DNA of 64,000 bases from Trueperaceae bacterium (GTDB taxonomy: Bacteria; Deinococcota; Deinococci; Deinococcales; Trueperaceae), in contig CBDCDZ010000004.1 of the NCBI GenBank assembly GCA_965215565.1, forward strand, positions 416,001-480,000. The letters are read 5' to 3'. How positions within the stretch are numbered: the stretch's first letter is position 1; every line of letters begins with the position of its first letter. The position numbers were made by a program, and so were the translations under genes. Positions 5,038 to 26,720 of the stretch are shown piece after piece. Under the pieces are notes generated by a model, which was given only the letters and a program-made list of their open reading frames with translations, did not search any database and had not been told where the DNA came from.

Positions 5038-5982
5038 ATGATGGTCATTATAGGCGTTGACCCACATCCTGGTACCCACACAGCAGCTGTGTTGGACATA
5101 AACGGCAAAGAGCTGGCTTACCTCACCGTCGAGAACAGCGAAGCAGGCTTGCAGCGGCTGAGGGATTGGGTAGAGCAGTTTCCTGAACGGGTCTGGGCTA
5201 TTGAAGGGACGAACAACCCCTTTGTGACGGCGCTGAGCCACACGCTCGCCGTGCAAGAAAGCGTCGTCAACATCTCGCCCAACCTCACTAGCCAATACCG
5301 CAGCCGGAGAGGGCGCAAGAAGAACGCCCGAGTCGATGCCGTCAACGTGGCACGGGCTTACCTCGCTAATCCTGATCTGCCTCCGTTCTCACCTCGGGCA
5401 GACGTTGAAGAGCTCAAAGAGCTTACCCGCACCAGAGAACGGCTCGTTGAGACGTTGAAAGCAAGCTGTTCAGCTTTACGTCGACTTGATGAGGGGGCGA
5501 CCAACTACCAAGCATTAGCAGCCGTTGTCGCCTGTCTTGAACAACAGATTTCGATGTTCGAGGCTGACCTAGATAGCCTCGTCAAGACGGCTGGTCCTCA
5601 GCTCTTAGGTTTACGAGGGGTTGCCACCGTCAACGCCGCTATCATCCTGGCAGAAGCAAGTAATGTTGAGCGTTTCCGCGACCAGCACGCTTTTGCAAGC
5701 TACGTCGGCTGCGCCCCCGTCGAGCGCTCGAGCGGGGGGCAGCAGCGCAGGTAACTCGATCCTGGTGGGAACCGGCGACTCAAACGGACCTGCCATTTGA
5801 TCGCGTTGGTAAGACTGCGGACCGATGAAATGACCCGAGCGTATGTGAAGCGTAAACAAGAAGAAGGTAAAACCTTTCGAGCTGCGCTCAGATCACTCAA
5901 AACCATCATTGCCCACGAACTCTACCGCTCTCTGAAGACCACTCGCACTCAACCCGCTTCTTTCATGGGGCCTTGCCCTTGA
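5038..5982 (+). pseudogene. IS110-family DEDD transposase/recombinase with an in-frame nonsense codon
   Basis: IIGVDPH, WAIEG, KKNARVDA (expected KxDxxDA; one Asp appears to be Ala), FASYVGCAPVERSSG; TAA at 5752-5754, then the same frame continues LDPGGNRRLKRTCHLIALVRLR. Confidence 0.9.
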
Positions 5983-6706: not shown

Positions 6707-7097
6707 TCACAGCCACACGCCCGCAGCGAGATACATGTGTTCATCCGAAATGCTGAGATGAGACGCTGAGCGCGGAGTCAGCTCGAGTCCATCCGCATAC
6801 ACCAACCCCTTCTCGCGGTAGACACGTAAGCGGCTCGAGGGTCGCCTGAAGCTAAACGTCTCCTGGTGCGCTACACGACCCGCCGAATAACGTTCCAACG
6901 TGCCGGAACCGGGCTCACGAGTGTGCTGTGATTGCCCCTGCCCATCCCGGATGACCTTGCCGCTGCCGAAGACGACCTCTTCACCGTAAACGTTGTGGTC
7001 TTTTTCGACTTCTAAGATAAGTGCGGTGTCACCAAGTCACAGCCTGTCATCCGTGGTGGGTAAGCAATGAGTAAAAACCAAAAACCTTTAGACTCAT
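6707..7097 (-). pseudogene. ureC: Fused remnants of urease alpha subunit (ureC 5' end) and a UreD-like internal segment
   Basis: Minus strand: [43 protein letters not shown] (UreC N-terminal signature) running in frame into [32 protein letters not shown] (UreD-like, less certain). Confidence 0.75.
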
Positions 7098-7113
7098 TAC
7101 TCGTTCCTCATTA

Positions 7114-7416
7114 CTAGCTAATCGGATCATGAATCGTCACCAGCTTCGTCCCGTCGGGAAACGTCCCCTCCACCTGAATCTCCAAGATCATTTCAAGCCC
7201 GCCGTTCATCGCGTCGTCGCGCCCTAAAATCGTCGCGCCGTAGCTCATCAGGTCAGGGACGCTCCGCTCGTCGCGGACGCCCTCAAAGACCTCGGCGGTG
7301 ATGAGGGCGATAGCTTCGGGGTGGTTGAGTTTAAGCCCCCTTTCTTTGCGGCGACGGGCGACCTCTGCCGCTGTGAAGATGAGGAGCTTGTCGCGTTCAC
7401 GTTCGGTGAGTCGCAT
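7114..7416 (-). CDS. ureA: Urease subunit gamma (possibly degenerating)
   Basis: [63 protein letters not shown] at 7416 just after the glnA stop. Confidence 0.9.
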
Positions 7417-7420
7417 GAGG

Positions 7421-9583
7421 TCAGCGGATAAAGAGCATCTCTTGATAGGTTGGCAGAGGCCACAGGTCATCGGCGACGATCGCCTCGAGCCCATCCGCCG
7501 CCTCGCGCACTTTATGCATGGTGGACCTGATCTCGTCGTGGGCGTAGTGAGCGCCCTCTAAGCCTTCTGGCACGTCTTGTTTGAGTGCCTCCAACTTCGC
7601 CGTGTTGTCTTGAAGCGATTTGACGAGGCTCGTGACCTTGTCGAGCGTGTCAGTATCGAACTCGTAGCCGATGGCTTTGAGGCTGGCGCAGGTCTGCGCG
7701 AGTTCGCCCTGGTAGCGCACGGCGGCGGGGAAGATGATGGTCTTCGCCATCTCCACAACTAAATTCGACTCCAGGTTGAGGCTCATGACGTACTGCTCTA
7801 AAGCGACTTCGTAGAGGCTCTCCAGTTCGTGTTTGCTAAAGACGTTGTAGGTCTCGAAGAGGGTGATGACCTCCTCAGAGATGTACGCGGGCAGGGCGTC
7901 CGGGGTCGCCTTGAGGTTGGGCAGCCCACGCGACTCGGCCTCCTTTTCCCATTCTTCCGAGTAGCCGTCGCCGTCGAACAAAACCGCGCCGTGCTCTTGG
8001 ATAATGGTCTTGAGAAGCGACTGCACGGCGGCGTTAAAGTCGTCCGCGCCTTCAAGTTCATTGGCGACGTAGTCGAGCGACTCCGCTAAGATGGTGTTGA
8101 TGACGGTAACGGGGCGCGAGATGGACTGGCTCGAGCCCACCGCCCGAAACTCGAACTTGTTGCCTGTAAAGGCGAAGGGGCTGGTGCGGTTGCGGTCACC
8201 TGCGTGTTTGGGCAGAGGGGGCAGCGTGTCCACGCCGACGCTCAACGTGCCCGAGGATTTGGACGAGGTCGCGCCGCCGTTGTTTTTAATCTGCTCAAAG
8301 ACGTCGCTGAGTTGGTCGCCCAAAAAAATAGAGATGATCGCGGGCGGCGCTTCGTTCGCACCCAAGCGGTGGTCGTTGCTCGCGGAGGCAATCGCAGCGC
8401 GTAGGAGCGGCGCGTGGCGGTGCACAGCGCGAATCACGGCGGCGCAGAAGACCAAAAATTGTGCGTTGTCGTGGGGGTTGTCGCCAGGGTCCAGCAGGTT
8501 CCCTTGCGCCGCGTTGCCTAAGGACATGTTCACGTGCTTGCCGCTGCCATTGATGCCCGCGAAGGGTTTTTCGTGGAGCAAGCAGGCGAAGCCGTATGTG
8601 CTGGCGGTTTTTTGCAGCACGCTCATGACAACTTGTTGGTGGTCGGCGGCGACGTTGGCGTTTTCAAAGACGGGCGCGAGTTCGAACTGGGCTGGGGCAA
8701 CCTCGTTGTGGCGGGTTTTGATCGGCACGCCGAGTTTGAACAGCTCGCGCTCCAAAGCGTACATACACGCCTGCACCCGCTCGTTAATCGCGCCGAAGTA
8801 GTGGTCGTCGAACTCCTGACCTTTGGGGGGCGGTGCGCCGAAGAGGGTGCGCCCGGCGGTCAAGAGGTCGGGGCGTGCCAAGTAGAAGCTGCGATCGATG
8901 AGGAAATACTCCTGCTCCGCGCCCGCCGTCGAGGTGACGAGGGCGACGCCCGTGTGACCGAACAGCTTCAACACGCGCTTCGCTTGGGTGTCCAGCGCTT
9001 TCATCGAGCGCAGCAGCGGGGTCTTTTCGTCCAGTATCTCGCCCGTCCAGGCGACGAAAGCTGAGGGGATGGTCAGCGTCAAGCCGTTGGGGTTCTCGGC
9101 TAAATACGCGGGGCTCGTCACGTCCCAGGCGGTGTAGCCTCTCGCTTCGTGCGTCTGGCGGAGCCCGCCCGTGGGGAAGCTCGAGCCGTCTGGCTCCTGC
9201 TGAATCAGGGTATCGCCCGAAAACTCCGAAATCGTGCCGCCTTCCGAGGTCGGCGAGAAAAAGCTGTCGTTCTTCTCGGCGGTCAGCCCGGTCAGCGGGT
9301 AGAAGATATGTCCGTAGTGCGTCGCGCCCTTCTCCACCGCCCACGCCTTCATCGCCGAGGCGATGGCGTCGGCGGTGGACACGTCCAGCGTTTGCCCCTC
9401 CTGAATGGTCTTCTGTAACGACTTAAATACATGTAAGGGCAGGCGCTCTTTCATGACCGCCAAGCTAAAGACGTTGCTGGCGAAGAGGTCGCCCGTCGGC
9501 TGCGCAGCGTAGTCGATAGGTTCTGGCAGTCGGTAAGCAATCGTTTCAGCAACGGACTTCGTGCGCACGGCGTTTCCGCTCAT
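7421..9583 (-). CDS. glnA: Glutamine synthetase type III
   Basis: 720 aa; [99 protein letters not shown]. Confidence 0.95.
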
Positions 9584-13340: not shown

Positions 13341-16300
13341 TTGGACATGACCATGAACAGAGCTACGTCGCATCCACGCCATCAACGCCGCACCGCCTCC
13401 CTTCTCGCCGCACTGATGTTCCTTGGCACGATCTTCCCGACCGGCTTCGCCTCCGCCCAGCAGTTCATCGCCAAGCCGGGCGCGGGCGTCTCCCGCTTGC
13501 CTTTGAATGTGACCGCCTTCCAAGCGGACGGCTTCGGGGACCTCACGGACGCCATCAACCTAGCCACCGGCAACGTCTACCTCAACGTCGCGGGCGTCTC
13601 CATGAACAACTTCATGGACTCGGGCGACGACACGAGCCGGGCTATCGGCGCAGAAGGCTGGAGCCTCAACGCCCGGTTGCGCTCGAAGGGCTTCTACAAG
13701 GGACTGAGCAGCGCCCCGAGCGGTCTCTTCCTAGGCGAGGGCGACGGCGGCGGCACGCCCTTCGAGCGTTACACCGTCTCTAGCTACTACAATGCCCCCT
13801 CCTGGATCGAGCGCTACAAGAACGTCTCGAACGCTTATGTGTACCGCAACCCGGAGCAAGACGGGGTGCAGTACTTGGAGGAGTTCGTCGTTCTCTTGGT
13901 TCGCCCTAATAGCTCTATCGCCCACTACTACGACCACAGCGGCACCCGCTACACCTTCCACGACGACGGCGAGTTCCTGGACTACGTGCAAGACCCTCAT
14001 CAGCAGTACCGCAGCGCGAAAGCTGGGTACTCGGAAGGGCGCGAGGTCAAAGGTGAGGCAACCATCCTGAGCTATAGGAACACCAGCAAGGGTCAGCTCA
14101 GCAAGGTGCAAGACCCCTGGGGCAGGGTCACCCGCTACACGTGGAACAGCGACAACACGTTGCGCTACGTCGACGAACTCCTCCAGAACGAGAGCGACCC
14201 CAACTCGTATGTCTCGCGCATCTCCTTTTTCTACATTACGAGATACAACCAGCGCCTGATGGACAAGGTCTTCATCACCCGCACAAACGGGCTCAAGCAG
14301 GTTAGACCTTACAACCACGACATGAGCGGGGTAGACCGGCGCTACTTGCGCTTTTACTACGCGCAGCAGTCCAACGGGGAAATCCTCCTCAATCGCTATG
14401 AGAAGGAGGGCGTCAACGGGACGAGCAACCGCTCGAAGACCTTCTACCGCTACGACCCTCAGAACCGGGTGACGCGGGTGCACACGACGGACAACTCGGG
14501 CAACCGCATTGAGACCTATACCTACTACAAGTACGGCACTTCGAGCGCGTTCGACGGGCAGCAGGTCACGGTGCAGCAGGGCGTGAAGGAGTCGGTCTAT
14601 GAGTTCGACCTTAGCGGTCAGTTACGCCGCAAGAAGGTCAAGGACTACAACCCGCGCTATAGCCAGACGAAGTGGCTGACCTGGAACTACACCTATGGGG
14701 ACGAGAGCCCCCGTGCGTACTGCCGCCTATGTGAGGCTAGCCCGGACCATCCTCGAGGCTCCACCTACCGCATCGAGGACCCCTCTGGCAAAGCTACCTC
14801 TTACACCTACGACAAGCACGGCAACGTCATCGAAATCTACGAGGCGGCGCTCGAGAACCCGACCAACGACCCCAGCCTGAACCGCACTCAAATCTTCGAC
14901 TACGACCGCGACAACCGGCTCAAGCACGAAGTCATGCCGCCCGACTCGGCGAAGCTCGAGGACGGCACCACCTTCGCTGAATACACGTTCAACCGAATCA
15001 ACCACTACTATACGATGCGACCGGCTGTAGAGCGTAACGGGCAGCGTTTTACTGCTGTTCAGTCCGTTAGCCGGAAGCGCGTCGGTGCGGGCGAGGACGC
15101 GGAGTACACCGACACCTTCGATACCTATGGACGTCTAACCGAGTCCAAACGTGTTGGTGAAGATCAGACCCAAACCACGACCTACGACTACTACTACGGC
15201 ACGAAGAACGCTAACTGGCGGCAGTACCTCCCCGATAGCGAGGGGCAACCCTCCAGTAGCTGGACGCCCGTGCAGTACGGCGACCAGGTCTACCTCATGA
15301 CCAGGACGGGCGAGGGAACGCGCTCTTTCACCTACGATCCCTACGGCAACGTCGTTGCTGAAAGCCATACGAGCGGCTTTAGCCCGGAGGTGGGCGTGAC
15401 CCGCAGCCGCACCACCTACCGCAGCTTCAACGGCTTCGGGCAGCCCGTCTGGGAGCTGACTTTCGGGGGGAGCGACCCCAAGGCGGCGGACGCTCAAGTT
15501 GCCAAACGCATGTGGTACTACCACGCTAAAACGGGCAACCTCGACTACAGTTGGGAGGGCAACAAGAAGAACGTCACCACCTATACCTACGCGGTAAATG
15601 GGACTGATAATGGTCGCGTCACTAAGATCGAGCGAGGCGTGTCCTCGAGCGGCAACGGCACGCTCAGCACGGTGCGGGGGCAGACGCTGTTCGACTACGA
15701 CGAATATGGAAGGGTCACGGAGAAGGCTGTTGACAAGCACGCTGTTACGAACGGCTTCACCACGAACTACCGCTACGATACTTTAGACCGGGTGGTGGAA
15801 GAGAAACGGCCTGCCGAGCACGGTACCACCTCGCGCGGCTTGACTGGCTACAAGTACGACGCTACGGGGCAGATCAGCTACACGTGGAATGCGGGTGCAG
15901 GGCTGCAACACTTCTTTGACCGTGACGCCTTTGGTCGCGTAACTAAAGAGGATTGGAACACTGCCGCGCCGATCTATACGACGTACGACCCCTACGACCG
16001 CCCTATTGCGATTCGCGACGAACGCCTGACAATGAACCAGGCGGGCGAACACCGCACGCGCTACTTCAAATATGATCTAAGGGGCAACCTCACTCACGAG
16101 TTGGGCGCACCGTTGCGCACAGCCGCGGGCGAATATACCGACTACCGCCGCCCTTACGTCATTCACCACTACGACGGGCTCAACCGCAAGGTTAAAGAGC
16201 AGCGGCTCATCAACGGCTCCACCATCGTCGGTAAAAACAACCTCATTGCTCTGAGCGACAGCAGCAGCAACGTCGCCGTCACCGAATACAGCTACGACGC

Positions 16301-16621
16301 CGCGAATCGGCTCACCCAGACAACCGATCCCGAGGACTACATCACGAAGTACAGCTACGACAGGTCCGGCAACCTCATCAAGCAGGTCCGGCAGGTCTGC
16401 AAGACGTACCAGGACTCGGACTGCACAAGTAGCGTGGAGGGGCTCGCCACCGTCGATAACCTCGGCTACGCCGTAGCGACCTACACCGGCTACGACGCAG
16501 CAAACCGCCTCATCTGGCACAAAGACGCGCGGACCAACATGCGCAGCACCACTTATGACCTACAGGGCAATGTCACAAAGCAAATCAACGAGCGGGACAA
16601 AGAGACGAGGCGCGTCTATAC
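13341..16621 (+). pseudogene. Rhs/YD-repeat protein, 5' part, interrupted by a Tn3-family transposon
   Basis: Sec-like signal peptide (ASLLAALMFLGTIFPTGFASA), DAINLATGNVY, many YD repeats (YTYDKHGNV, YRYDTLDRV, YSYDAANRL); the annotated stop at 16664 lies at the inner edge of the transposon left TIR. Confidence 0.9.
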
Positions 16622-16662
16622 GAGGTCCGGCAACAATTCGTGTAAATTTCAGCGACTCTCAT
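16622..16662 (+). repeat. Tn3 left terminal inverted repeat
   Basis: GAGGTCCGGCAACAATTCGTGTAAATTTCAGCGACTCTCAT, exact reverse complement of 23665-23705. Confidence 0.97.
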
Positions 16663-17003
16663 AGAATGGCATGGCGGTAGATGAGTCCAAAGTTTTATGC
16701 GTTTGCCGCGTGGCTTTGGTAGAAGGATTTATTCAGTAAATCTCGCGCTGCTACCGATGTAGTCGAGTTTTTGCAAAAGCACGAATTAACATTCAGCAGA
16801 CCATGGCAAAGCCGCTGTGCGAGCAAATAACCCCCGCACTTAACCAACTTCAGATTTGCCGAGTCCGGATGTTGGAAAATATATAGTTGAGAACTAAATG
16901 AGACTATTCTAAGATTGTATCCTGATACCAACTTGGCGAGATGTCTCGCGGTTGCGCTAATAGGTTATCAGCTCAAAAGAATTCATGCAGTGAAAGGATA
17001 ACG

Positions 17004-18872
17004 ATGGGTCGTCAAGTTTACGTCGTGTTAGGAATTCTGGTGCTTCTTCTTTCAAGTTGCAGCATTCAAGAACAGCCAACAGCAGCTTTTAATGAGGACA
17101 CTTTCACAAATTTTGTGGCAGATGATATAGGTGCAACTTTACCTACAGAGATGGAAATGGTTGATGCCGCCCTGAGCGACGCCAATACCGCTGATGACGC
17201 CTTTTATCGAATGGTCAAAGAAGTCGGTGGCTTTACTGCGTATGAACAGAAGCTGATGGAGCTTGATGACACTGCCCTAGATCAGTTCCACAAGCAATAT
17301 GGTTTAGGTTTTACAAGAGGAATGCCAGGTAGCTCTCTAAATGCGTTCGGAGATATAGCACTACAGGCTATTACCGACTGCGTTGAGTTTTTCCCGGCCT
17401 CGGACCGCAACCGAGTCTTTAGAATATCGGGACACACGGTCTTTATTGACAATGTTGGACGACCGGGCTATGCAAAACTTAATTTCAGGCGCAATCAAGT
17501 CATCGCGCCCAACCCGGTACGTACCAAATGTCAAACTGACGTGCGCGAGTGGGGTGACCCCGGTGATGTTGGTGGTCATTTAATTCCCGCGGTATTAGGT
17601 GGGTACAACAAACGAGCAAATATTGTGCCACAAAATGGCACAATGAACAATTCAGTCTGGCGTAAAGTTGAGAATTTGGTACGCAAATGCGTGACCAGTA
17701 GGTACAGCGGTTCCTATACAGTGACGCCACAATACGCTGATCCAACCTCGGTCCGCCCATCCCATCTGCAGGCTTATGTCGTCCTATACCGTCCCTTAAT
17801 TCCTATTGTTCCTGCTGTTACAGGAACCTTACGCCTTCCCAATCAGGTTCCTGGTGCCGCTCAGACTCTTGCAGCGGAAGGTTTCATCGCCAATTTCACG
17901 CCCTATTGCACGCGAATTGTTGGCCTAATTATTGACGATACGGGATCGATGGGAAGCCAGATTGGTGCTGTTAAGGCGTCTCTAGCGAACTATATCACAG
18001 ACGTTCCTGAGGAGCAGGACACCCTTTGGAACTTGACGACGTTCAAAGACGCTGTCTCCAATAAAGGAACGACCGCAGAGCTAAGCACAATAAGCGGATG
18101 GGTGGGTGGATTACGCGCCTCTGGTGGTGATGATTGCCCTGAGGAAGCTCTCGGAGCGATTAGGTCGGGAATTCGCACGCTCAGTACATATCCAGACCGC
18201 GGAAGAGATTTAATCGTCGTTACCGACGCTTCGGCTCAGCCAGGTGACATAAGTGGAATCATTGCTGCTGCCAATCTCGATGATGTTCGCGTCAGTGTTT
18301 TACTCTCTGGCGACTGTGGCAGATCAACTACGACCTCGACTTTGAGTTCGAGCGGGCTCACGACACTTAGTCACTCCTACCCTCTCTCGAGCCAGGTTGT
18401 ACTCAAGGAAATCGCTGACGCTACGGGGGGAAAATACTTCTTCATCCCTGGCGGTACTCGACAGGATTACGAGAACGCACTTGATGAAATATTTGCGTTC
18501 ATCGAAGAAGGCTCAACGGATACAACGCCACCCACTATTACCCTGAGCACCGATTCCAACGTACTTTGGCCTCCGAACCATAAAATGCGAGAAGTCAGTG
18601 TCGAGGTTGTAGTCGAAGATGATACAGACCTGGAGCCGATGGTCGAACTCGTAGGCGTCGTGAGCACCGAACCTTTTGATGGACAAGGGGATGGGCATAC
18701 TGAAGATGATATCCAGGTGGATGAAGAAGGTAGAATCTTCGTTCGCGCCGAGCGCAGTGGCTCAGGAAATGATCGAATCTATACAGTTACCTATAGAGCA
18801 ACCGATGCCGCTGGCAACGTTGGTTTCGGATCGTTAGACTTCTTAGTACCACACGATAAAAGAAAGAAATAA
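17004..18872 (+). CDS. Lipoprotein with DNA/RNA non-specific (His-Me, Endonuclea_NS_2-like) nuclease, vWA and C-terminal Ig/HYR-like domains
   Basis: Start MGRQVYVVLGILVLLLSSC (lipobox, AAAGGA RBS); DVGGHLIPAVLGGYNKRANIVPQNGTMNNSVWRKVE and VRPSHL (nuclease); IIDDTGSMG, ASGGDDCPEEA, IVVTDA, IADATGGKYF (vWA MIDAS); DTTPPTI..LWPPNHKM..RAERSGSGNDRIYTVTYRATDAAGN. Confidence 0.85.
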   Translation: MGRQVYVVLGILVLLLSSCSIQEQPTAAFNEDTFTNFVADDIGATLPTEMEMVDAALSDANTADDAFYRMVKEVGGFTAYEQKLMELDDTALDQFHKQYGLGFTRGMPGSSLNAFGDIALQAITDCVEFFPASDRNRVFRISGHTVFIDNVGRPGYAKLNFRRNQVIAPNPVRTKCQTDVREWGDPGDVGGHLIPAVLGGYNKRANIVPQNGTMNNSVWRKVENLVRKCVTSRYSGSYTVTPQYADPTSVRPSHLQAYVVLYRPLIPIVPAVTGTLRLPNQVPGAAQTLAAEGFIANFTPYCTRIVGLIIDDTGSMGSQIGAVKASLANYITDVPEEQDTLWNLTTFKDAVSNKGTTAELSTISGWVGGLRASGGDDCPEEALGAIRSGIRTLSTYPDRGRDLIVVTDASAQPGDISGIIAAANLDDVRVSVLLSGDCGRSTTTSTLSSSGLTTLSHSYPLSSQVVLKEIADATGGKYFFIPGGTRQDYENALDEIFAFIEEGSTDTTPPTITLSTDSNVLWPPNHKMREVSVEVVVEDDTDLEPMVELVGVVSTEPFDGQGDGHTEDDIQVDEEGRIFVRAERSGSGNDRIYTVTYRATDAAGNVGFGSLDFLVPHDKRKK

Positions 18873-18887
18873 GACGTATAACGCCTG

Positions 18888-18919
18888 GAGAACGTGGAGG
18901 CTTGAGCCTCCACGTTCTC
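18888..18919 (+). terminator. Hairpin after the nuclease-vWA gene, probable terminator
   Basis: GAGAACGTGGAGGCT-tg-AGCCTCCACGTTCTC followed by TCTTT. Confidence 0.6.
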
Positions 18920-19002
18920 TCTTTGCAGCTATAACTCAGACCAACAGGAATTCTCAGACCGCGGTGTACATTTCTAATTAGCCTAAACGCTATGCCCAGT
19001 TC

Positions 19003-19046
19003 TGCGCTTTGCAAAGCGCATTTCTCGGACCTTTATAATTCAACTT
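19003..19046 (+). promoter_or_regulatory. Palindrome plus -10 box for probable leaderless SMI1 transcript
   Basis: Perfect 18-bp palindrome TGCGCTTTGCAAAGCGCA (19003-19020); TATAAT at 19034-19039, 7 nt before the ATG. Confidence 0.55.
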
Positions 19047-19655
19047 ATGGACGCTGCCGCGCTGTTTTACACCATCACGGACATACTCGAACCCTTCTAT
19101 GAAACCCTGCCTCTCAATCCGCCAGCCACCGAATCCGACATCATGGCGCTGGAGCGTGACTTAGGCGTGGTCCTACCCGAGTCTTACAAAGAGATATTGC
19201 GCCTTCATGATGGTGAAAATCTCTCTCCACCAGGCGGAGAAGATTTACTTGGTCTCTTCGGCTACTATGAATTCTTGAGCGTCGCTGAGGTCAGAACGCA
19301 GTACGAGATATGGCGGGAAACGGCTAACTACTGGGCTGAGCAGGACGATGACACGGTTTTTACGAGTGCTCCCGAAGATTTCGTGCAAGAGGTTTTCGTC
19401 GCCTCAGGCTGGCTCCCCTTCGCGGGTAAATACTCGGGCAACCACCTAGCCCTCGACTTCGCCCCCGCGAGTCGCGGCGTGGTGGGTCAAGTTATTACGT
19501 TCGGGAGCGATGAAGAGGTTCATCACCACATCGCGCCGAACTTTACCGAGTTTCTGGCGTTCATCCTAGCGGCGTATCAGGAGGGTAAGTATCATCCCAA
19601 GCTGACCGGCAATCCTAAAGCGCTCATCGAAGACCTCCCTGCATTTCGCGTTTGA
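19047..19655 (+). CDS. SMI1/KNR4 (SUKH) family protein
   Basis: LNPPATESDIMALERDLGVVLPESYKEILRLHDGE..GWLPFAGKYSGNHLALDFAPASRGVVGQVITFGSD..IAPNFTEFL. Confidence 0.9.
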   Translation: MDAAALFYTITDILEPFYETLPLNPPATESDIMALERDLGVVLPESYKEILRLHDGENLSPPGGEDLLGLFGYYEFLSVAEVRTQYEIWRETANYWAEQDDDTVFTSAPEDFVQEVFVASGWLPFAGKYSGNHLALDFAPASRGVVGQVITFGSDEEVHHHIAPNFTEFLAFILAAYQEGKYHPKLTGNPKALIEDLPAFRV

Positions 19656-19776
19656 GAGATTAAATGGGATCAAGCAACTAGGCTTACCTAAGTCGGTCTT
19701 CGCTTTGATGCAAAACTAAAGAAAAGTAGCCGACTATTTTAGAACCGTTCGCCGCACAACACCCTCTAGTCCGCGT

Positions 19777-20466
19777 TCACTTCGACAGCGCTTTTAGATA
19801 GTTCTCCCCGAGGTTCTTGAGGCTCGTCTCGGCGTAAATTTGCGTGGTCGTCACGTTCTTGTGCCGCAAAAATTTCTGCACCTGGTCGATAGGCATTCCT
19901 TTGTCGAGCAACAGGGTGGCGACACTCGCCCGCAGGCGGTGGGGCGTCACCACCTTCTCAATCTCCGCACGCTTCGCCGCGTTTTGCACGATGAGCTGCA
20001 CCCCACGCGGCGAGTAACGGTCGCGTCGGTTGCTCTCGAAAAGGTAGAGCGTCTTGCGCCCGCTCAGGTAGGTGCGCAGCTCTTGGGCAAGAGACGGCAA
20101 GATCGGCACATAGCCGTCGCTCCCGCCCTTCGCCACGGCAATGTAAATCTGTGGCGGCTCCAAATCGAGATGTAAGTCCGCCGCTTTAATGTTGACAAAC
20201 TCGCTGACTCTCGCACCTGTATAGAAGAGCATCTTGACCATAAGCCCGTAACGGCTGCCCTTGCGGTACGCCGCTTCGATAAGCCTCTCGACTTCGAAGC
20301 GGTCAAGCCGCGCTACCGTGCGGCGGCGCTCTTTGGGTTTCTTCAGTTCAAGCTCGCGTCTGACGCGCTCAATGACGTAGCGGCTCTGATCATAAGAAAG
20401 GTGATGCTTGCGCCAAAGTTTAGTGGTCTCGCGGATAACTTCGTTCAAGCCTGCTGTTTTCGTCAT
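19777..20466 (-). CDS. Tyrosine recombinase (transposon co-integrate resolvase, TnpI-like role)
   Basis: YTGARVSE, AKGG, TPHRLRAS, FLRHKN, TTQIYA; inside the Tn3 element and divergent from tnpA; start uncertain (20466 or 20532). Confidence 0.9.
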   Translation of the reverse strand: MTKTAGLNEVIRETTKLWRKHHLSYDQSRYVIERVRRELELKKPKERRRTVARLDRFEVERLIEAAYRKGSRYGLMVKMLFYTGARVSEFVNIKAADLHLDLEPPQIYIAVAKGGSDGYVPILPSLAQELRTYLSGRKTLYLFESNRRDRYSPRGVQLIVQNAAKRAEIEKVVTPHRLRASVATLLLDKGMPIDQVQKFLRHKNVTTTQIYAETSLKNLGENYLKALSK

Positions 20467-20532
20467 AGCGTTGTGACCACGCCATCCTTTCTCATATTCG
20501 GCTATTTGTCTCCTTTTACTTGCTCCTTGCAC

Positions 20533-20574
20533 ACCGAATAGTTCGCTGTTTCAGCATTGTGCGAACTCTTCGGT
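20533..20574. promoter_or_regulatory. Putative resolution (recombinase-binding) site
   Basis: ACCGAATAGTTCGC-N14-GCGAACTCTTCGGT (1 mismatch) between recombinase and tnpA; TG-N-TATGCT extended -10 at 20583-20591. Confidence 0.55.
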
Positions 20575-20669
20575 CTAGCTTCTGCTATGCTGGGGAGCCC
20601 GACCCAAAATCTCCATGTCATGGGTTGCCATCTGCCTTTCTTTCCACTTTAGGGGAGTAAGGAGCACAT

Positions 20670-23600
20670 ATGGCTGAGGTTCACGAAACCGCCTACCCGA
20701 GGCTCAAGCATAACCCGAGCCGCCGCGACCTGGAGCGAACGTACACGCCGAGCCGCGAGGAGATCGAGCTGGCTGAGTCGCTCGCTCGGAGTGAGGTCGC
20801 CAAGCTCGGCTTTCTGGTGCTGCTCAAGACCTTCCAGCGGCTCGGCTACTTCGTGCGTTTAGAAGAGGTACCTGTTGCCGTCGTCGAACACATCGCGCGT
20901 AGCTTAGGCTACCTGTTCGTGCCCGTGCGCATCGTCGATTACGACCGGAGCGGCACGCGCACGGCTCACGTCGCAACCATCCGCACCAAGGAGGGCGTGC
21001 GACCCTACGGGCTAAGCGGACCAGACGTCATCGCCCAAGCTATGCACGGGGCGGCGCAAACCCGCGAGGATTTGCGCGACCTCATCAACGCTGCGGTGGA
21101 GGAACTCGCACGCGCTCGCGTCGAGCTACCCGCCTTCAGCACTCTCAAGCGGGCAGCTTATCGCGTCCGCACCGAGGTCAACGCGCACTACCACAGGCTC
21201 ATTCACGATGCTCTGACCGAGGCGGACCGGATCACCTTGACGGCGATCTTCGCCGAACCGCTCGCAGGCGCGACGACCAGCCCGTGGCGGGAGATCAAGC
21301 GCGACCCCGGCAAAGCCACGCTGACCAACCTCGCGGCGCTGCTCGAGCACCACGCCTGGCTCGAAGAACAAAAGCCCACTGTAGACTTCGGCGCACTCCT
21401 ACCCGAGACGAAACTGCGTCAGTTCGCCGCCGAGGGGGACAGCCTCGACTTCGCGCGGATGCGGCAGGTCGAGCCGGTCAAGCGCCTCACTCTGACGGCG
21501 GCGTTAATCCACACCAAGGCGGCACAAGTGCTGGACGACCTCGGTGACCTCTACTGCAAGCGCCTCTATGCGATTCACCGCCGGGGTCGGGAGGCGCTCG
21601 ACGCTTACCACCGCGAGCACCAGAGCCGCACCGACACCTTGGTCCGGGCGCTCAAGGATGTTCTCACCGCCTACCGCACGGGCGGTGACGAGGCGACGCG
21701 CTTTCGCGCCATCCGCGGCGTGGTCGGTCACCGCACGGACGAACTGATCGCGCAGTGTGAAGCGCACGAGGTGTACGCCGACAACAATTACGCGCCCTTC
21801 CTCTGGCGTCCTTACGCGAGCCACCGCGCCACGCTTTTCAGACTGGCTCGAGCGCTGCCCCTCAAAGCCACCACGCAGGACGAAAGTTTCATGGCGGCCC
21901 TCACCTTTCTGCAGGGTAACGAGAAGAGTCGGAGCGACTGGCTCTCGCTCGAAGATCACCCGCTCGACCTATCTTGGCTGGGCGACAAGTGGTGGTCGTT
22001 AGTGACGGATGAAAAAAAGCGCACCCCCTATCCAGCGCGCGTCAAGCGCAAGCACTTCGAGATCGCCGTGTTCAACCAGCTTATGCGCGAACTCAAGTCC
22101 GGTGACGTGTGCATCGAGGGCAGTTTGGCGTATGCCGACTACCGCGCTCAACTCGTTAATGACCAGGAATACGCTGAGCTAGTCACGGCGTTCGGGGTAG
22201 AGGTAGGTTTACCCACCGACCCTACCGCCTTCGTGGACCACATGCGGACGTGGCTTCATGAGGCGGCCACCCGGACCGACCTCACCTTCCCAGCCAACGA
22301 CGCGCTCAGTCTCGAAGACGGACGACCCGTGCTCAAGAGGCGTCGCCGCAAGGTCGCCCAGCGCAGGATTAAACACCTGGAGAAGAAGCTGCGCGAGCGC
22401 TTCACGCCTACGCCCATCCTCGACATCCTTACCGACACAGAAACGCTACTCGCTTGGACGCAGTTCTTTCGACCTCTCTCCGGCCACGACGCCAAGCTGG
22501 AGCACGCCCGCGCGCGTTACCTTACTGCCACCTTTTGTTACGGCTGTAACGTCGGCCCGACCCAGACGGCGCGCTCGCTGCCAGGAGCCGACCGCAAGCA
22601 AATCGCCTGGGTGAATCAGCGCCACATTCACGACGAAGACTTAGAACGTGCCAAGACGCTGCTGATCAACGCCTACAACCGTTTCGCCATCCCCAAGCTG
22701 TGGGGCACGGGTAGAACGGCCTCGGCGGATGGGACCAAGTGGGACGTGTACGAGAAGAACCTCTTGGCGGAGTACCACATCCGCTACGGGGGCTATGGGG
22801 GCATTGGCTACTACCACGTCTCAGACACCTATATCGCCCTCTTCAGCCGCTTCATCCCTTGCGGGGTGTATGAGGCGGTGCATATCTTGGATGGTTTGTT
22901 GGAGAACGACAGCGACATCCAACCGGATACGGTCCACAGCGACACGCACGGGCAGAGCGTACCGGTGTTCGGCTTGGCGCACCTGCTCGGCATCGACCTG
23001 ATGCCCAGGATTCGCAACTGGAAGGACCTAGTCTTCGTTAGGCCGGACAAAGGGCTCCGCTATGAGCACATCGACGCGCTCTTTACCGACACACCTAACT
23101 GGGACCTCATCCGCCGCCACCTACCCGACCTGCTGCGCATCGTGGTGTCGATCAAAGCTGGACGGATTAGCGCCTCGACCATCCTCAAGCGCCTCAGCGC
23201 GTACAGCCGCAAGAATCACGTCTATCAAGCCTTTCGTGAACTCGGACGGGTGGTGCGCACGGGGTTCTTGTTGCGCTACCTCGCCGACGAGGAACTGCGC
23301 GCAACGATCCAAGCGGCGATGAACAAAAGCGAGCAGTTTAACGCCTTCTTGAAGTGGCTCGCCTTCGGCGGAGAGGAAATTCGCACCAACGATAGAGAGT
23401 TGCAGCAGAAGATCATCCGCTACAACCACCTCGTGGCTAACTGCGTCATCTTCTACAACGTTATGACGCTCACGCGGACTGTGAAAGAGCTGCGTGACGA
23501 AGGCTATGAGGTTCCTGAAGAGGTTCTCGCCGGGCTCAGCCCTTACATGACGGAGCACATCAACCGCTTAGGGGAGTACCGCCTCGACCTTTCCAGGGTG

Positions 23601-23678
23601 CCACCTGAGCCCGATTATGACTTCACTTTCACGCTGCCCGAGGAGGCTAAAGCCTCACCGCTTCATGAGAGTCGCTGA
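20670..23678 (+). CDS. tnpA: Tn3-family transposase
   Basis: 1002 aa; ETAYPRL, ASADGTKW, VHSDTHGQS, LMPRIRNWKD, AFRELGRVVRTGFLL, MNKSEQFN; stop lies within the right TIR. Confidence 0.97.
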   Translation: MAEVHETAYPRLKHNPSRRDLERTYTPSREEIELAESLARSEVAKLGFLVLLKTFQRLGYFVRLEEVPVAVVEHIARSLGYLFVPVRIVDYDRSGTRTAHVATIRTKEGVRPYGLSGPDVIAQAMHGAAQTREDLRDLINAAVEELARARVELPAFSTLKRAAYRVRTEVNAHYHRLIHDALTEADRITLTAIFAEPLAGATTSPWREIKRDPGKATLTNLAALLEHHAWLEEQKPTVDFGALLPETKLRQFAAEGDSLDFARMRQVEPVKRLTLTAALIHTKAAQVLDDLGDLYCKRLYAIHRRGREALDAYHREHQSRTDTLVRALKDVLTAYRTGGDEATRFRAIRGVVGHRTDELIAQCEAHEVYADNNYAPFLWRPYASHRATLFRLARALPLKATTQDESFMAALTFLQGNEKSRSDWLSLEDHPLDLSWLGDKWWSLVTDEKKRTPYPARVKRKHFEIAVFNQLMRELKSGDVCIEGSLAYADYRAQLVNDQEYAELVTAFGVEVGLPTDPTAFVDHMRTWLHEAATRTDLTFPANDALSLEDGRPVLKRRRRKVAQRRIKHLEKKLRERFTPTPILDILTDTETLLAWTQFFRPLSGHDAKLEHARARYLTATFCYGCNVGPTQTARSLPGADRKQIAWVNQRHIHDEDLERAKTLLINAYNRFAIPKLWGTGRTASADGTKWDVYEKNLLAEYHIRYGGYGGIGYYHVSDTYIALFSRFIPCGVYEAVHILDGLLENDSDIQPDTVHSDTHGQSVPVFGLAHLLGIDLMPRIRNWKDLVFVRPDKGLRYEHIDALFTDTPNWDLIRRHLPDLLRIVVSIKAGRISASTILKRLSAYSRKNHVYQAFRELGRVVRTGFLLRYLADEELRATIQAAMNKSEQFNAFLKWLAFGGEEIRTNDRELQQKIIRYNHLVANCVIFYNVMTLTRTVKELRDEGYEVPEEVLAGLSPYMTEHINRLGEYRLDLSRVPPEPDYDFTFTLPEEAKASPLHESR

Positions 23679-23705
23679 AATTTACACGAATTGTTGCCGG
23701 ACCTC
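23665..23705 (-). repeat. Tn3 right terminal inverted repeat
   Basis: ATGAGAGTCGCTGAAATTTACACGAATTGTTGCCGGACCTC followed by TATAC. Confidence 0.97.
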
Positions 23706-24563
23706 TATACCCCTGATGGGCTCCTTCACTCCATCTACGAACCTGCTATCGAAACAGGTAGCAGCGGCGAGGTCAGAACCAAGTACTACACCTACGGCAA
23801 GCGCCCTTTCCCAATCACGCTGAGCGAGGCGGCGGGTCCGGACAGTGGCGCGCTGACGACGTACGAGTATGACTGGCGGGGTAACGTCGTCGAAACCACG
23901 CTGCCTACAACGCAAGATGTGGACGGTGCCGACGTCGCCGCGACCGTGACCCAGACCTACGATGAAAACGGCAACCTCATGATGATGGTAGACGCAGAAG
24001 GGTTCGTGACGACGTACTGGTATAACAAGTACAATCGGCTCGAGACCGAGCAGAAGCTGACGCGAAACACCACGACAATTGACAACAAAGCGTTCCCGGA
24101 GAGTGGCGGCCCGAGGACAGATTACTGGTACGACGCGGCGGGCAACCTGATCGGGGAGGAGCGGGGCACCCTCTACACCCATTACGCCTACAACAGCTTG
24201 GGTAAGGTCATCGTCGAGTCGCGTCCTTCTACTGCGAGCAGCGCCGATTCGAATAGAAAGCTCAAGACCTACCGTTTGGACGGTGCGCTCACAGCGCATA
24301 CAACCTATGATTACAGGGGTTCGTTAACAGGGGCAGGGACAAGTACAGTTGCTAAGATAGGTCCCTCCAACCTACCGACAGTAACCAAGCTGTGGGAAGA
24401 GGTCTTACCTAGTGCCAAAAAGCGACGCAAACGTCGAATACCTCGACACCTTTTTGCGAAGTCGCTAAGCGAAGCCGCCGACGCCTTAGGGCGGCTAGAC
24501 TCACCCCCTCGAGATGGTATCTATGTTTGTAAAAAGACTACCAGCAATTTGCAGACAACATAA
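23706..24563 (+). pseudogene. Rhs/YD-repeat protein, 3' continuation, truncated (similarity fades at ~24390)
   Basis: Removing the Tn and one TATAC restores ..RRVYTPDGLLHSIYEP.. in frame; YEYDWRGNV, TYDENGNL, YWYDAAGNL; no Rhs core end (PxxxxDPxG) or toxin tip. Confidence 0.85.
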
Positions 24564-25190
24564 ATTTTTCACGAGCATAGGTATTGTGAAAGATTTCTTA
24601 AACGAGAAGCCTGTTAGCAGCAGATAGAGTATTTAGAGAAACCGTTGAAAACCTCCGCTTCGCTAAAAGGCATTTAGTGTAAGAGATAGCAGTTCCAAAA
24701 CATACTGAGACGGATGAGCGCAGATCTCTGTCCGCAAGGACTAGCGAAATTTCATCTCAAAATGTGCTTGCTGTTTTCTGAAAGCCCGCAGGGACGCAGT
24801 TTTCGCAGAGCGAATGACGTAGTACGCCGTCAGGCAAGCATGTTCTAGAAAGTGAGAGTGTTTCAAACCACCGTCGCTGCGCGAGTACTAACGTAAACCG
24901 AGCTTTGCGAGTTCAGCGACTCAGCTTTAGCTAGCGGGTTGGGCTGAGGTTTACCGTCTTCTGCGAAGCTTACAGATCAGACTTTGATACCTGCCAAGAG
25001 ACGCGGAAATAGATAGAGGATAAGTCCAGCAGTCACGTAGAGTTATCTTCATTAGGTCGAGACGCCGAGCGCCTGGAAGCGCTGAGGTTTCTTTGCTTTG
25101 CTGTTTAGCGTAGGGGAGAGGTAGAGTATGAATAGCACGCTTCACTCACAGCGCAACCAAGCTCGAGTTCAACCTTTAAGCCCTTCTCTG

Positions 25191-26222
25191 CTATTCTCGT
25201 GACAACCGCTCTCCTAATCCTTCCTGTGCTGACCTCGCCCGCTCGCTCGCTTTCTTGCTCGTCACCTTGGCGTAGCGCTGCGTCGTAACCAGACTCTCGT
25301 GTCCCATGAGCGCTTGGGTCTCGAGCAAGCCAACAGACTCCTGCATCATCACGCCGAACGTGTGCCTCAGCGCGTGAACTGCCCTATACGCATTGGGTTG
25401 TTGGGTGAAGGGGTTGACGCCGAACGCCTTTATACATAGAACCCGCAGCTTTTTTCTCAACCCATCCGTTGAGTAAGGGCCCCAGTGACCATACTTACGC
25501 ATGAGCACCCAGTTACCCCGCTGCGGCAGCGCGGCTAGCGCGCGGCTAGTCGCGGCGTCAAAAGGCACGGTGCGCCGCTTGTTCCCCTTCCCCTCAACGC
25601 TGAGAAGTTGATCTTGAAAATCTACATCTCTCCACCTGAGCGAGACGATCTCCTCGATACGTAACCCGCAGAGCACACCCAAAAGTATCGCCACGCGTGA
25701 TACCGAGTCATCCAGATGCTCCGCGGCTTCCAGCAGCGACTTGACGGTCTCGAGCCGATACTCCTCGCGCTTCTCGTGAGGCTTGACCGGGTCAGGAGAG
25801 ACTTTGACCTCATCAAAGGGATTCGTAAGTTCGAAGCCGCACCAGGCGAGCGCCTCGTAAAATCGGCGGGCGGCGATGACCCTAAGATGCACCGTGGCAG
25901 GCGCTTTAGGTTGAGTATCCTCGTCGCCCTGCTCGAGTCGCCTCACATACCCCTGCGCTTCGTCAGCCGAAACCCGTAAGAGGTCCGCGCCACCCCGGTG
26001 CTCGAGCCAGTCGAGCACGCCCCTTCTATACGCGCGCAAGGTGTGCTGGCTGACGCGCGTTCCCTTCTTACCCGTGAACTGTAGATGCGCTACGGTCAAG
26101 CGCCAGAGCACCTCCTCGTCCTCCGAGAGGATTGCCTGCGCTGCTCGCCGCTTGCGCTCGGAGGGGTCTAGTCGCGACCAATCTTGCCAAGCTTGGGATA
26201 GAAGTAAAAGGTCACTCACCAT
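25191..26222 (-). CDS. Tyrosine recombinase/integrase (Xer-like, with N-terminal SAM-like domain)
   Basis: SQHTLRAY, CGLRIEE, GKGNKRR, HALRH, LMGH, TTQRYA. Confidence 0.92.
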   Translation of the reverse strand: MVSDLLLLSQAWQDWSRLDPSERKRRAAQAILSEDEEVLWRLTVAHLQFTGKKGTRVSQHTLRAYRRGVLDWLEHRGGADLLRVSADEAQGYVRRLEQGDEDTQPKAPATVHLRVIAARRFYEALAWCGFELTNPFDEVKVSPDPVKPHEKREEYRLETVKSLLEAAEHLDDSVSRVAILLGVLCGLRIEEIVSLRWRDVDFQDQLLSVEGKGNKRRTVPFDAATSRALAALPQRGNWVLMRKYGHWGPYSTDGLRKKLRVLCIKAFGVNPFTQQPNAYRAVHALRHTFGVMMQESVGLLETQALMGHESLVTTQRYAKVTSKKASERARSAQEGLGERLSRE

Positions 26223-26665: not shown

Positions 26666-26720
26666 TATTAGTATAATAAGTCATGATAATGTTCAATTAT
26701 CATGACTTATTATACTAATA
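26666..26720. repeat. 55-bp AT-rich palindrome, candidate recombination site
   Basis: TATTAGTATAATAAGTCATGATAAT-gttca-ATTATCATGACTTATTATACTAATA (perfect 25-bp arms). Confidence 0.9.

Follow-up and report, generated by a model that had tools for sequence, protein, structure and literature searches.

Why a transposon should carry a nuclease gene together with a gene of the SMI1/KNR4 (SUKH) family is the question raised by a Tn3-family element found in a Trueperaceae bacterium, within a 64,000-nucleotide stretch of contig CBDCDZ010000004.1 that is termed the window below. The element (16622..23705 of the window) is intact, measures 7,084 bp and harbors four genes, which encode a predicted lipoprotein nuclease, a SUKH protein, a tyrosine recombinase and the transposase TnpA. 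The account that we favor, to which a slightly better than even chance of being correct is given, regards the pair as a surface nuclease for extracellular DNA accompanied by a separately transcribed cytoplasmic SUKH inhibitor, in the manner of NucA and NuiA. All of the component families are known already, as is the NucA-SUKH pairing as a prediction; new are the lipoprotein-vWA-Ig form of the nuclease, a partner that is optional and seemingly transcribed on its own, and the carriage by a Tn3 element, which is so far one case.

The lipoprotein nuclease and its SUKH partner

The 622-aa lipoprotein is constructed from a lipobox (L16-S-S-C19, read by pattern alone), a helical pro-region, a nuclease domain, a vWA domain and an Ig-like tail. 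Its likely start is the ATG at 17004, which was taken from a database gene call (P0001) and is accompanied by AAGGA, a sequence resembling a ribosome-binding site. The residues G191-H192, N206, N215 and E223 of the nuclease domain are invariant in 26/26 aligned homologues and agree with the Tox-NucA/Endonuclea_NS_2 signature, recorded for Tox-NucA as GH, N, N, E (PMC3482391). C126, C176, C229 and C302 are likewise invariant in the 26 aligned sequences, and two disulfides are probable because these four cysteines form no CxxC pairs; homologues of DsbB and VKOR are present in the host genome. The nearest solved structure is the EssD/EsaD nuclease (E 4e-12). The nuclease fold is argued here from sequence matches, since the Foldseek matches listed for the full-length models (mean pLDDT, the predicted local distance difference score, 59 for the first and 80.9 for the second) were all of the vWA type. 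Within the vWA domain lie DDTGS/VTDA motifs, which we take to resemble a metal-ion-dependent adhesion site. The C-terminal Ig/HYR-like domain also closes two other large nuclease-like proteins of the same genome, which are presumably of the ExeM/NucH kind.

Most relatives of the protein are nuclease-only lipoproteins of about 250-330 aa, while four further full-length nuclease-vWA-Ig fusions (39-71% identity) were present among 28 matches. Another protein, P0009, may be a cut nuclease-vWA form and is not confirmed as such. As a separate observation, the vWA and Ig-like tail appears as a modular chassis bearing several head domains (L002, L118-L122, L125; P0005-P0024), the commonest other head being a "PHxS" domain of ~150 aa with two cysteines and no Pfam match. 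The nuclease gene has a third-position GC content (GC3) of 0.45, which places it at the 1.5th percentile among 2,471 open reading frames (ORFs) of the host and suggests capture from another source; the GC3 of tnpA is host-like (0.79).

The 202-aa product of the second cargo gene displays no visible signal sequence and combines the two marks of SUKH-1, a PF09346 domain and linkage to a gene for an HNH-fold nuclease. It is encoded by the sole PF09346 gene of the host genome, and its clade matches the yeast Knr4 core with an E value of 9e-43 in a comparison confined to this SUKH clade. The preliminary description of the locus, made from its letters alone, had read the cargo as a nuclease-vWA lipoprotein followed co-directionally by an SMI1/KNR4 gene, and the Pfam matches (PF13930, PF25106 and PF09346) agree with it.

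The two genes look separately transcribed, as judged from the signals between them. A perfect 15-bp hairpin, likely a terminator, is followed by a TATAAT that is probably the gene's own leaderless promoter, 7 nt before the ATG. This leaderless position of the -10 box is known for the phylum Deinococcota (PMC12340547), and -10-like motifs are enriched upstream of host starts, amounting to 3.2% at a spacing of 7 and 7.5% at a spacing of 6, against a background of 1.3%. Moreover, TANNNT was found 6-8 nt upstream in 7/11 related SUKH genes, the starts of which were assigned by us.

Distribution of the pair

The nuclease was detected in 13/364 Deinococcota genomes, at 14 loci besides the transposon locus, and a SUKH gene adjoins it at 13 of the 14 (11 tail-to-tail, one head-to-head and one in line). 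As the five genomes tested contain 1-6 SUKH genes each, the co-occurrence lies far beyond chance, and homologues that never co-occur, the finding which the preliminary description had named as speaking against the pair, were not what was met with. Downstream SUKH genes on the same strand occur at the transposon locus, L043 and L123. In the order Rhodothermales, the nuclease is present in 6/141 genomes at seven loci, four of which have a tail-to-tail SUKH gene, and in one of these genomes the sole PF09346 gene is the one that adjoins the nuclease. SUKH tracks the nuclease and not the tail, being absent at 6/6 loci where the vWA-Ig tail bears another head domain. Behind one fusion-type vWA gene that is cut by an insertion sequence (IS) and has lost its head (L123), SUKH is present; beside one further contig-cut fragment it is absent. 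Loci recorded twice (L073 = L031, L082 = L038, L080 = L215) were counted once, and none of the conclusions draws on a genome flagged as unpublished (G035).

ORF reading and tblastn disclosed no Tn3 TnpA in the seven widely read pair loci (L068-L072, L127, L128), the remaining pair loci being covered for 1.5 kb on each side. The nuclease-SUKH pair is therefore older than the transposon, since it occurs in relatives at loci without a Tn3 TnpA. Two candidate lines were set aside. The correlation between nuclease and SUKH identities (rho 0.72, 11 pairs) was not counted as evidence of co-evolution, six of the pairs coming from one genus, and contig L126 was rejected as a second cassette, for the repeat at its inverted ends matches 13 places in its genome and likely belongs to an IS that cuts the vWA gene.

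A different picture was obtained in the myxobacterial phylum, where the sample consisted of 251 genomes of the phylum to which a Hyalangium record belongs. The nuclease is present in 29 of them, one copy each, with the catalytic motif intact in all 27 complete copies, and no SUKH match lies within 1.5 kb at any of the 29 loci (two of which end at contig edges). A Pfam scan of 900 nt downstream, covering at most the five longest frames at each locus, gave SUKH at 0/25 loci and one Imm11. No neighboring family is common to more than three of the 29 loci; one myxobacterial copy adjoins endonuclease I, and two proteobacterial copies adjoin PhoD and PhoX phosphatases. Two myxobacterial genomes contain unlinked SUKH genes, with 5 matches in one and 13 in the other.

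The transposon and its relatives

The element transposed as one unit into an Rhs/YD-repeat gene and left a 5-bp duplication. Its two 41-nt end repeats are 100% complementary and TATAC stands on both sides, so that the perfect terminal inverted repeats and the target duplication given in the preliminary description hold. These ends conform to the ~38-41-bp repeats and 5-bp duplication expected of the Tn3 family, with tips of GAGGT rather than GGGG; GAGGG tips are on record for Tn3-family elements (PMC4337579). Over the reconstructed empty site the target frame is open, with one stop in 1,378 codons, and the target gene looks truncated as well, because it stops at 24563 and the open frame of a paralogue extends to at least 2,614 aa. 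A search of the 4.49-Mb genome that tolerated up to 10 mismatches gave a single occurrence of the element with its ends, and viral contigs gave no match to a 25-nt end pattern. In contigs from two runs of one sample, the read depth of the element was 20.5 against 19.3 and 18.4 for the flanks, and no empty-site joint was seen among the 15 joints listed, four more being unlisted; these contigs provide no independent support, as the sample is probably the source of the assembly itself.

TnpA matches NF033527 at 682 bits (cut-off 500), PF01526 (E 8.5e-149) and PF13700, and retains D687, D758 and E888, which we take to be catalytic. The PF00589 recombinase, likely the resolvase, possesses R108, H198-x-x-R201, H224 and Y233, presumably its active-site residues; a full TnpA and a tyrosine recombinase had been named at the outset, and both stand. 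The 28-bp inverted-repeat core between the two genes is likely the resolution site, because this motif recurs at the same position before the recombinase gene in 16/20 relatives (19 fetched recombinase-relative places plus L067), where 0.015 would be expected per 200 nt. With the PF00589 gene and this core, the resolvase and resolution site of a Tn3 element would both be in place.

Relatives of the recombinase at 59-74% identity are present in 30/363 other genomes of the phylum (37 places, 20 of them fetched), and neither the nuclease nor SUKH is found at any of the 20 fetched places. Two of these elements have complete ends and duplications and carry mer-type and HupE/DUF3500 cargo, respectively. 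Judged from these sequences, cargo is clearly exchangeable within this transposon group, which answers the question posed in the preliminary description of whether the pair co-travels or cargo is swapped. The two genes keep together (13/14 Deinococcota loci), and the pair does not travel with this transposon family (0/20 loci of the recombinase relatives). Forty TnpA-related loci yielded neither a close end repeat nor the nuclease, and in one of them (L016/L066) a SUKH gene lies beside a TnpA remnant.

The elements TnXax1 (Tn4651 subgroup) and Tn4430/Tn5401 share GAGG-type tips, a tyrosine resolvase and a 5-bp duplication with the present one (PMC4337579, PMC7157771). With the TnpA of TnXax1 the present one shares 46.5% identity. 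TnXax1 possesses a TnpS + TnpT pair, unlike this element with its single recombinase and 41-bp ends. The one recombinase ORF here lies 137 bp from tnpA, a gap that leaves no space for tnpT, and in the absence of TnpT the element is no standard TnXax1-type member. Its recombinase gene is divergent from tnpA, whereas tnpI of Tn4430 is colinear. The nearest layout was found on Deinococcus peraridilitoris plasmid pDEIPE01 (NC_019789.1; L045 3059-11028), where an element with a TnpA of 50.7% identity ends in GAGGT, is flanked by a CTCCC duplication and likewise has its recombinase and tnpA genes arranged divergently. As cargo it carries signaling genes, one for a response regulator and one for a GAF protein, and the annotation of its TnpA and recombinase is broken into pieces.

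Some side observations concern these relatives. Loci L155-L174 represent a Deinococcota tyrosine recombinase family in which the 28-bp core is conserved and often accompanied by another copy of 29 bp, and the members of which pair with varying TnpA clades and orientations; one of them (L157, 7684-13911) has ends and a duplication without a TnpA match. An 890-aa lipoprotein gene and a downstream 310-aa gene lie just outside a Tn3 element at L047 (5157-8765) and L048 (7479-11087), and that element is cargo-less and has a serine resolvase.

Proposed function and alternatives

The mechanism that we propose starts from the insertion of the element into the Rhs gene, which the 5-bp duplication shows to have taken place as a unit. 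The tyrosine recombinase would resolve cointegrates, acting at the 28-bp core. The lipoprotein would be exported, lipidated at Cys19 and furnished with two disulfides, its vWA-Ig tail probably holding it at the surface or in the matrix, where the predicted nuclease, whose catalytic residues are intact, would cut DNA or RNA outside the cell. The SUKH protein, probably made from its own promoter, may be a standing cytoplasmic guard against nuclease that folds inside, as is the case with NuiA. In the most speculative step, the host might gain nucleotides or phosphate, and the element might avoid being cured by incoming empty-site DNA.

The best functional analogue is Anabaena NucA/NuiA, in which a secreted sugar-non-specific nuclease is accompanied by a separately expressed, constitutive cytosolic inhibitor (PMC13522737). 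Unlike NucA, the transposon nuclease is predicted to be lipid-anchored, ends in a vWA-Ig tail and rides a transposon. The inhibitor family of NuiA differs from SUKH. As to the benefit for the element, a block to transformation is plausible, and nutrient scavenging is equally so. The nucleases IdeA, SxnA, Dns, CJE0566 and CJE1441, carried by integrative and conjugative elements (ICEs) and prophage-like elements, block transformation in Vibrio and Campylobacter, and resemble the present case in the exported nuclease, the integrated mobile element and the ComEC-bearing host; no inhibitor partner and no Tn3 case are named in the available part of that source (PMC12378983). ComEC is present in the Trueperaceae host.

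Several points weigh against this account. A disulfide-dependent enzyme should need no cytoplasmic inhibitor unless it re-enters cells in folded form, which favors a toxin, and the disulfides themselves are read from cysteine conservation. Why Deinococcota need a guard is left unexplained if myxobacteria suffer no harm from the nuclease; the unlinked SUKH genes could serve in the latter. The nearest solved relative, EsaD, is a true toxin, and two loci have genes of other immunity families downstream, namely the Imm11 noted above and an Imm17 at L070, where an 885-aa lipoprotein (6905-9559) with the same pro-region bears the nuclease in mid-protein and is followed by the small Imm17 gene without SUKH. 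The Deinococcota loci are not independent, eight of 12 genomes belonging to one genus. In addition, a consensus promoter and terminator scan gave no entry for the -10 box or for the hairpin.

The alternative that survives best, and that we hold to be unlikely, is a toxin-immunity system of the SitA kind, in which the lipoprotein would pass to neighbors by contact or vesicles, the nuclease would enter their cytoplasm, SUKH would protect carriers, and the transposon would spread by killing. Precedent is not wanting. Linkage of NucA-family nucleases to SUKH was predicted as toxin-immunity in 2011-2012 (Zhang et al., PMC3113570, PMC3482391), and Myxococcus SitA1/SitI1 likewise consists of an outer-membrane lipoprotein nuclease with a lipobox and a downstream SUKH immunity gene on mobile DNA (PMC5562445). 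Staphylococcus aureus EsaD, whose nuclease domain is the nearest one solved (PDB 8GUO, 8GUN) and whose catalytic His528 aligns with the histidine here, is a toxin of the type VII secretion system; its inhibitor EsaG lies outside the SUKH family matched at the transposon locus (PMC9616950). A cytoplasmic SUKH partner further implies cytoplasmic exposure of the nuclease, and the conserved junction of the form L-x-A-Q before the nuclease could, speculatively, be a release site.

The architecture tells otherwise. Polymorphic toxins and SitA bear the toxin at the C-terminus; in SitA this toxin part is variable (WHH in SitA1), and SitA itself requires TraAB and is reported from Myxococcales only (PMC5562445). 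Here the nuclease comes after the signal and in front of an adhesion-type tail, and in place of a constant N-terminal carrier with exchangeable C-terminal toxins it is the head that varies on the tail. With the Tox-NucA pairs it shares the GH, N, N, E nuclease beside SUKH, but it differs from them in its four invariant cysteines, a partner that is usually tail-to-tail, and the lack of a type V, VI or VII secretion or Rhs carrier (PMC3482391); no match to TssC or WXG100, the type VI and VII markers, was found in the host. All 12 pro-region matches at E<1e-9 are nuclease loci (364 genomes, at most 17 candidates scored in each), and because the pro-region was found only with this nuclease, there is no toxin swapping of the SitA type. 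Weaker pro-region matches at 19 other places (E ~1e-3) were rejected as short, and none of the 18 fetched matches the nuclease or SUKH profiles. Myxobacteria exchange outer-membrane lipoproteins, yet keep the nuclease without a linked SUKH (0/29). Within one sampled genus the nuclease is better conserved (75-90% identity) than SUKH (49-76%), and the tail-to-tail order of 11/13 pairs is unlike a toxin-immunity operon. The invariant cysteines, the lack of toxin swapping, the unguarded myxobacterial copies and the phosphatase and nuclease neighbors argue, on sequence grounds, against a polymorphic toxin. The preliminary description had offered competition or extracellular-DNA processing; the latter fits best, and the former is weakened by the myxobacterial loci, by the pro-region found with this nuclease only, by the separate transcription signals and by the absence of the pair from the 20 loci of resolvase relatives. 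A more specific toxin, in which the vWA-Ig part would glue the Tn3-borne lipoprotein to its targets and a Knr4-like antidote would complete a kin-killing addiction module of Deinococcota without a known secretion machine, is improbable in our estimate.

No more probable than that module is a surface enzyme whose SUKH partner is not an inhibitor and has a linked role, for instance in export quality control or envelope stress, the two genes staying close because their functions are shared. The separate transcription signals, the mixed orientation, the absence of the partner from whole lineages and the closeness to yeast Knr4 are consistent with such a role, and Syd, a proof-reading factor of Sec, is a SUKH member (PMC3113570). 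Against it, SUKH follows the nuclease and not the exported tail (0/6 other-head loci), and the sole PF09346 gene adjoins the nuclease both in the host and in the Rhodothermales genome mentioned above. Weakest, and very improbable, is a chance-captured passenger of no selected benefit, for which speak the single copy, the low GC3, the lack of nuclease cargo in either same-genus genome, several broken related loci (L041, L042, L044, L123) and the unrelated cargo of the resolvase relatives, and against which speak two intact genes with all conserved residues and expression signals and a 71%/60% identical pair (P0002, P0030; single contigs of 6,320 bp each, probably one contig), besides its silence on the biochemistry of the pair.

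Place among known cargo and wider meaning

The preliminary description did not recognize the pair as described on a Tn3 element, and a literature search, which lacked most subscription papers, found no report of it as Tn3 cargo either. The passengers of TnXax1 are effectors and lytic enzymes (PMC4337579), and a survey of Tn3 toxin-antitoxin modules gives seven pair types, nuclease-SUKH not among them in its available part (PMC7157771). Deinococci do not appear in the Tox-NucA row of the table in PMC3482391, though the supplements of this paper and of PMC3113570 may hold a Deinococcus case, and a search for extracellular nucleases of Deinococcus gave one review, which treats DR_B0067 (PMC6300522).

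The Tn3 cargo repertoire thus gains a type, none being in print by this search. The lipoprotein nuclease family extends over several phyla, with a SUKH partner that some lineages retain and others lack. This contrast works as a natural experiment on the question whether the guarding by SUKH proteins extends to ordinary secreted nucleases or is confined to toxins. As the biochemical action of Knr4 was called poorly understood in 2011, a defined ligand for a Knr4-like clade would be useful. If the enzyme does block transformation, a unit transposon would join ICEs and prophages as a carrier of anti-transformation DNases.

Features of the locus and other observations in the window

Table 1. Features of the Tn3-family element and of its target gene (window coordinates)
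Feature	Coordinates	Strand	Evidence or remark
Interrupted Rhs/YD-repeat target gene, 5' part (outside the element)	13341..16621	+	
Target duplication TATAC, left copy	16617..16621	none	flank reading
Left terminal inverted repeat, 41 bp, GAGGT tip	16622..16662	+	
Predicted lipoprotein, 622 aa: lipobox Cys19, helical pro-region (~45-121), nuclease, vWA, Ig-like tail	17004..18872	+	
NucA/EsaD-type His-Me nuclease domain, aa 122-302	17367..17909	+	PF13930, E 2.5e-13
vWA domain, aa ~304-502	17913..18509	+	VWA_4 PF25106, E 1.8e-17; Foldseek matches to vWA/integrin I domains
C-terminal all-beta Ig/HYR-like domain	18516..18869	+	
Perfect 15-bp hairpin, likely terminator between cargo genes	18888..18919	+	region z -3.5
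TATAAT, likely leaderless promoter of the SUKH gene	19034..19039	+	7 nt before ATG
SMI1/KNR4 (SUKH-1) protein, 202 aa	19047..19655	+	PF09346, E 1e-22
Tyrosine recombinase, likely resolvase, divergent from tnpA	19777..20532	-	PF00589, E 1e-32
28-bp inverted-repeat core, likely resolution site, between recombinase and tnpA	20540..20567	none	
Tn3-family transposase TnpA, 1,002 aa, 3' end overlapping the right end repeat	20670..23678	+	
Right terminal inverted repeat, 41 bp	23665..23705	-	
Target duplication TATAC, right copy	23706..23710	none	flank reading
Target gene, 3' part (outside the element)	23711..24563	+	stop at 24563

Some further features lie outside the element. A short repeat just past the truncated Rhs gene (24687-24870) resembles repetitive extragenic palindromes or miniature inverted-repeat transposable elements; its core has ~150 matches in the genome and is very deep in the sample contigs. 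A second tyrosine recombinase (25191-26222, minus strand; PF00589 + PF02899) is also located there, and a gene similar to it lies near the SUKH gene and TnpA remnant of L066. An AT-rich inverted repeat, perfect over 25 bp and with a spacer of 5 nt (26666-26720), lies upstream of a gene for a Na+/H+ antiporter and is possibly an operator or a recombination site. On the other side of the element, the window encodes a 996-aa NB-ARC + TPR protein (1273-4263) and contains a piece of an IS110-family transposase (5038-5754).

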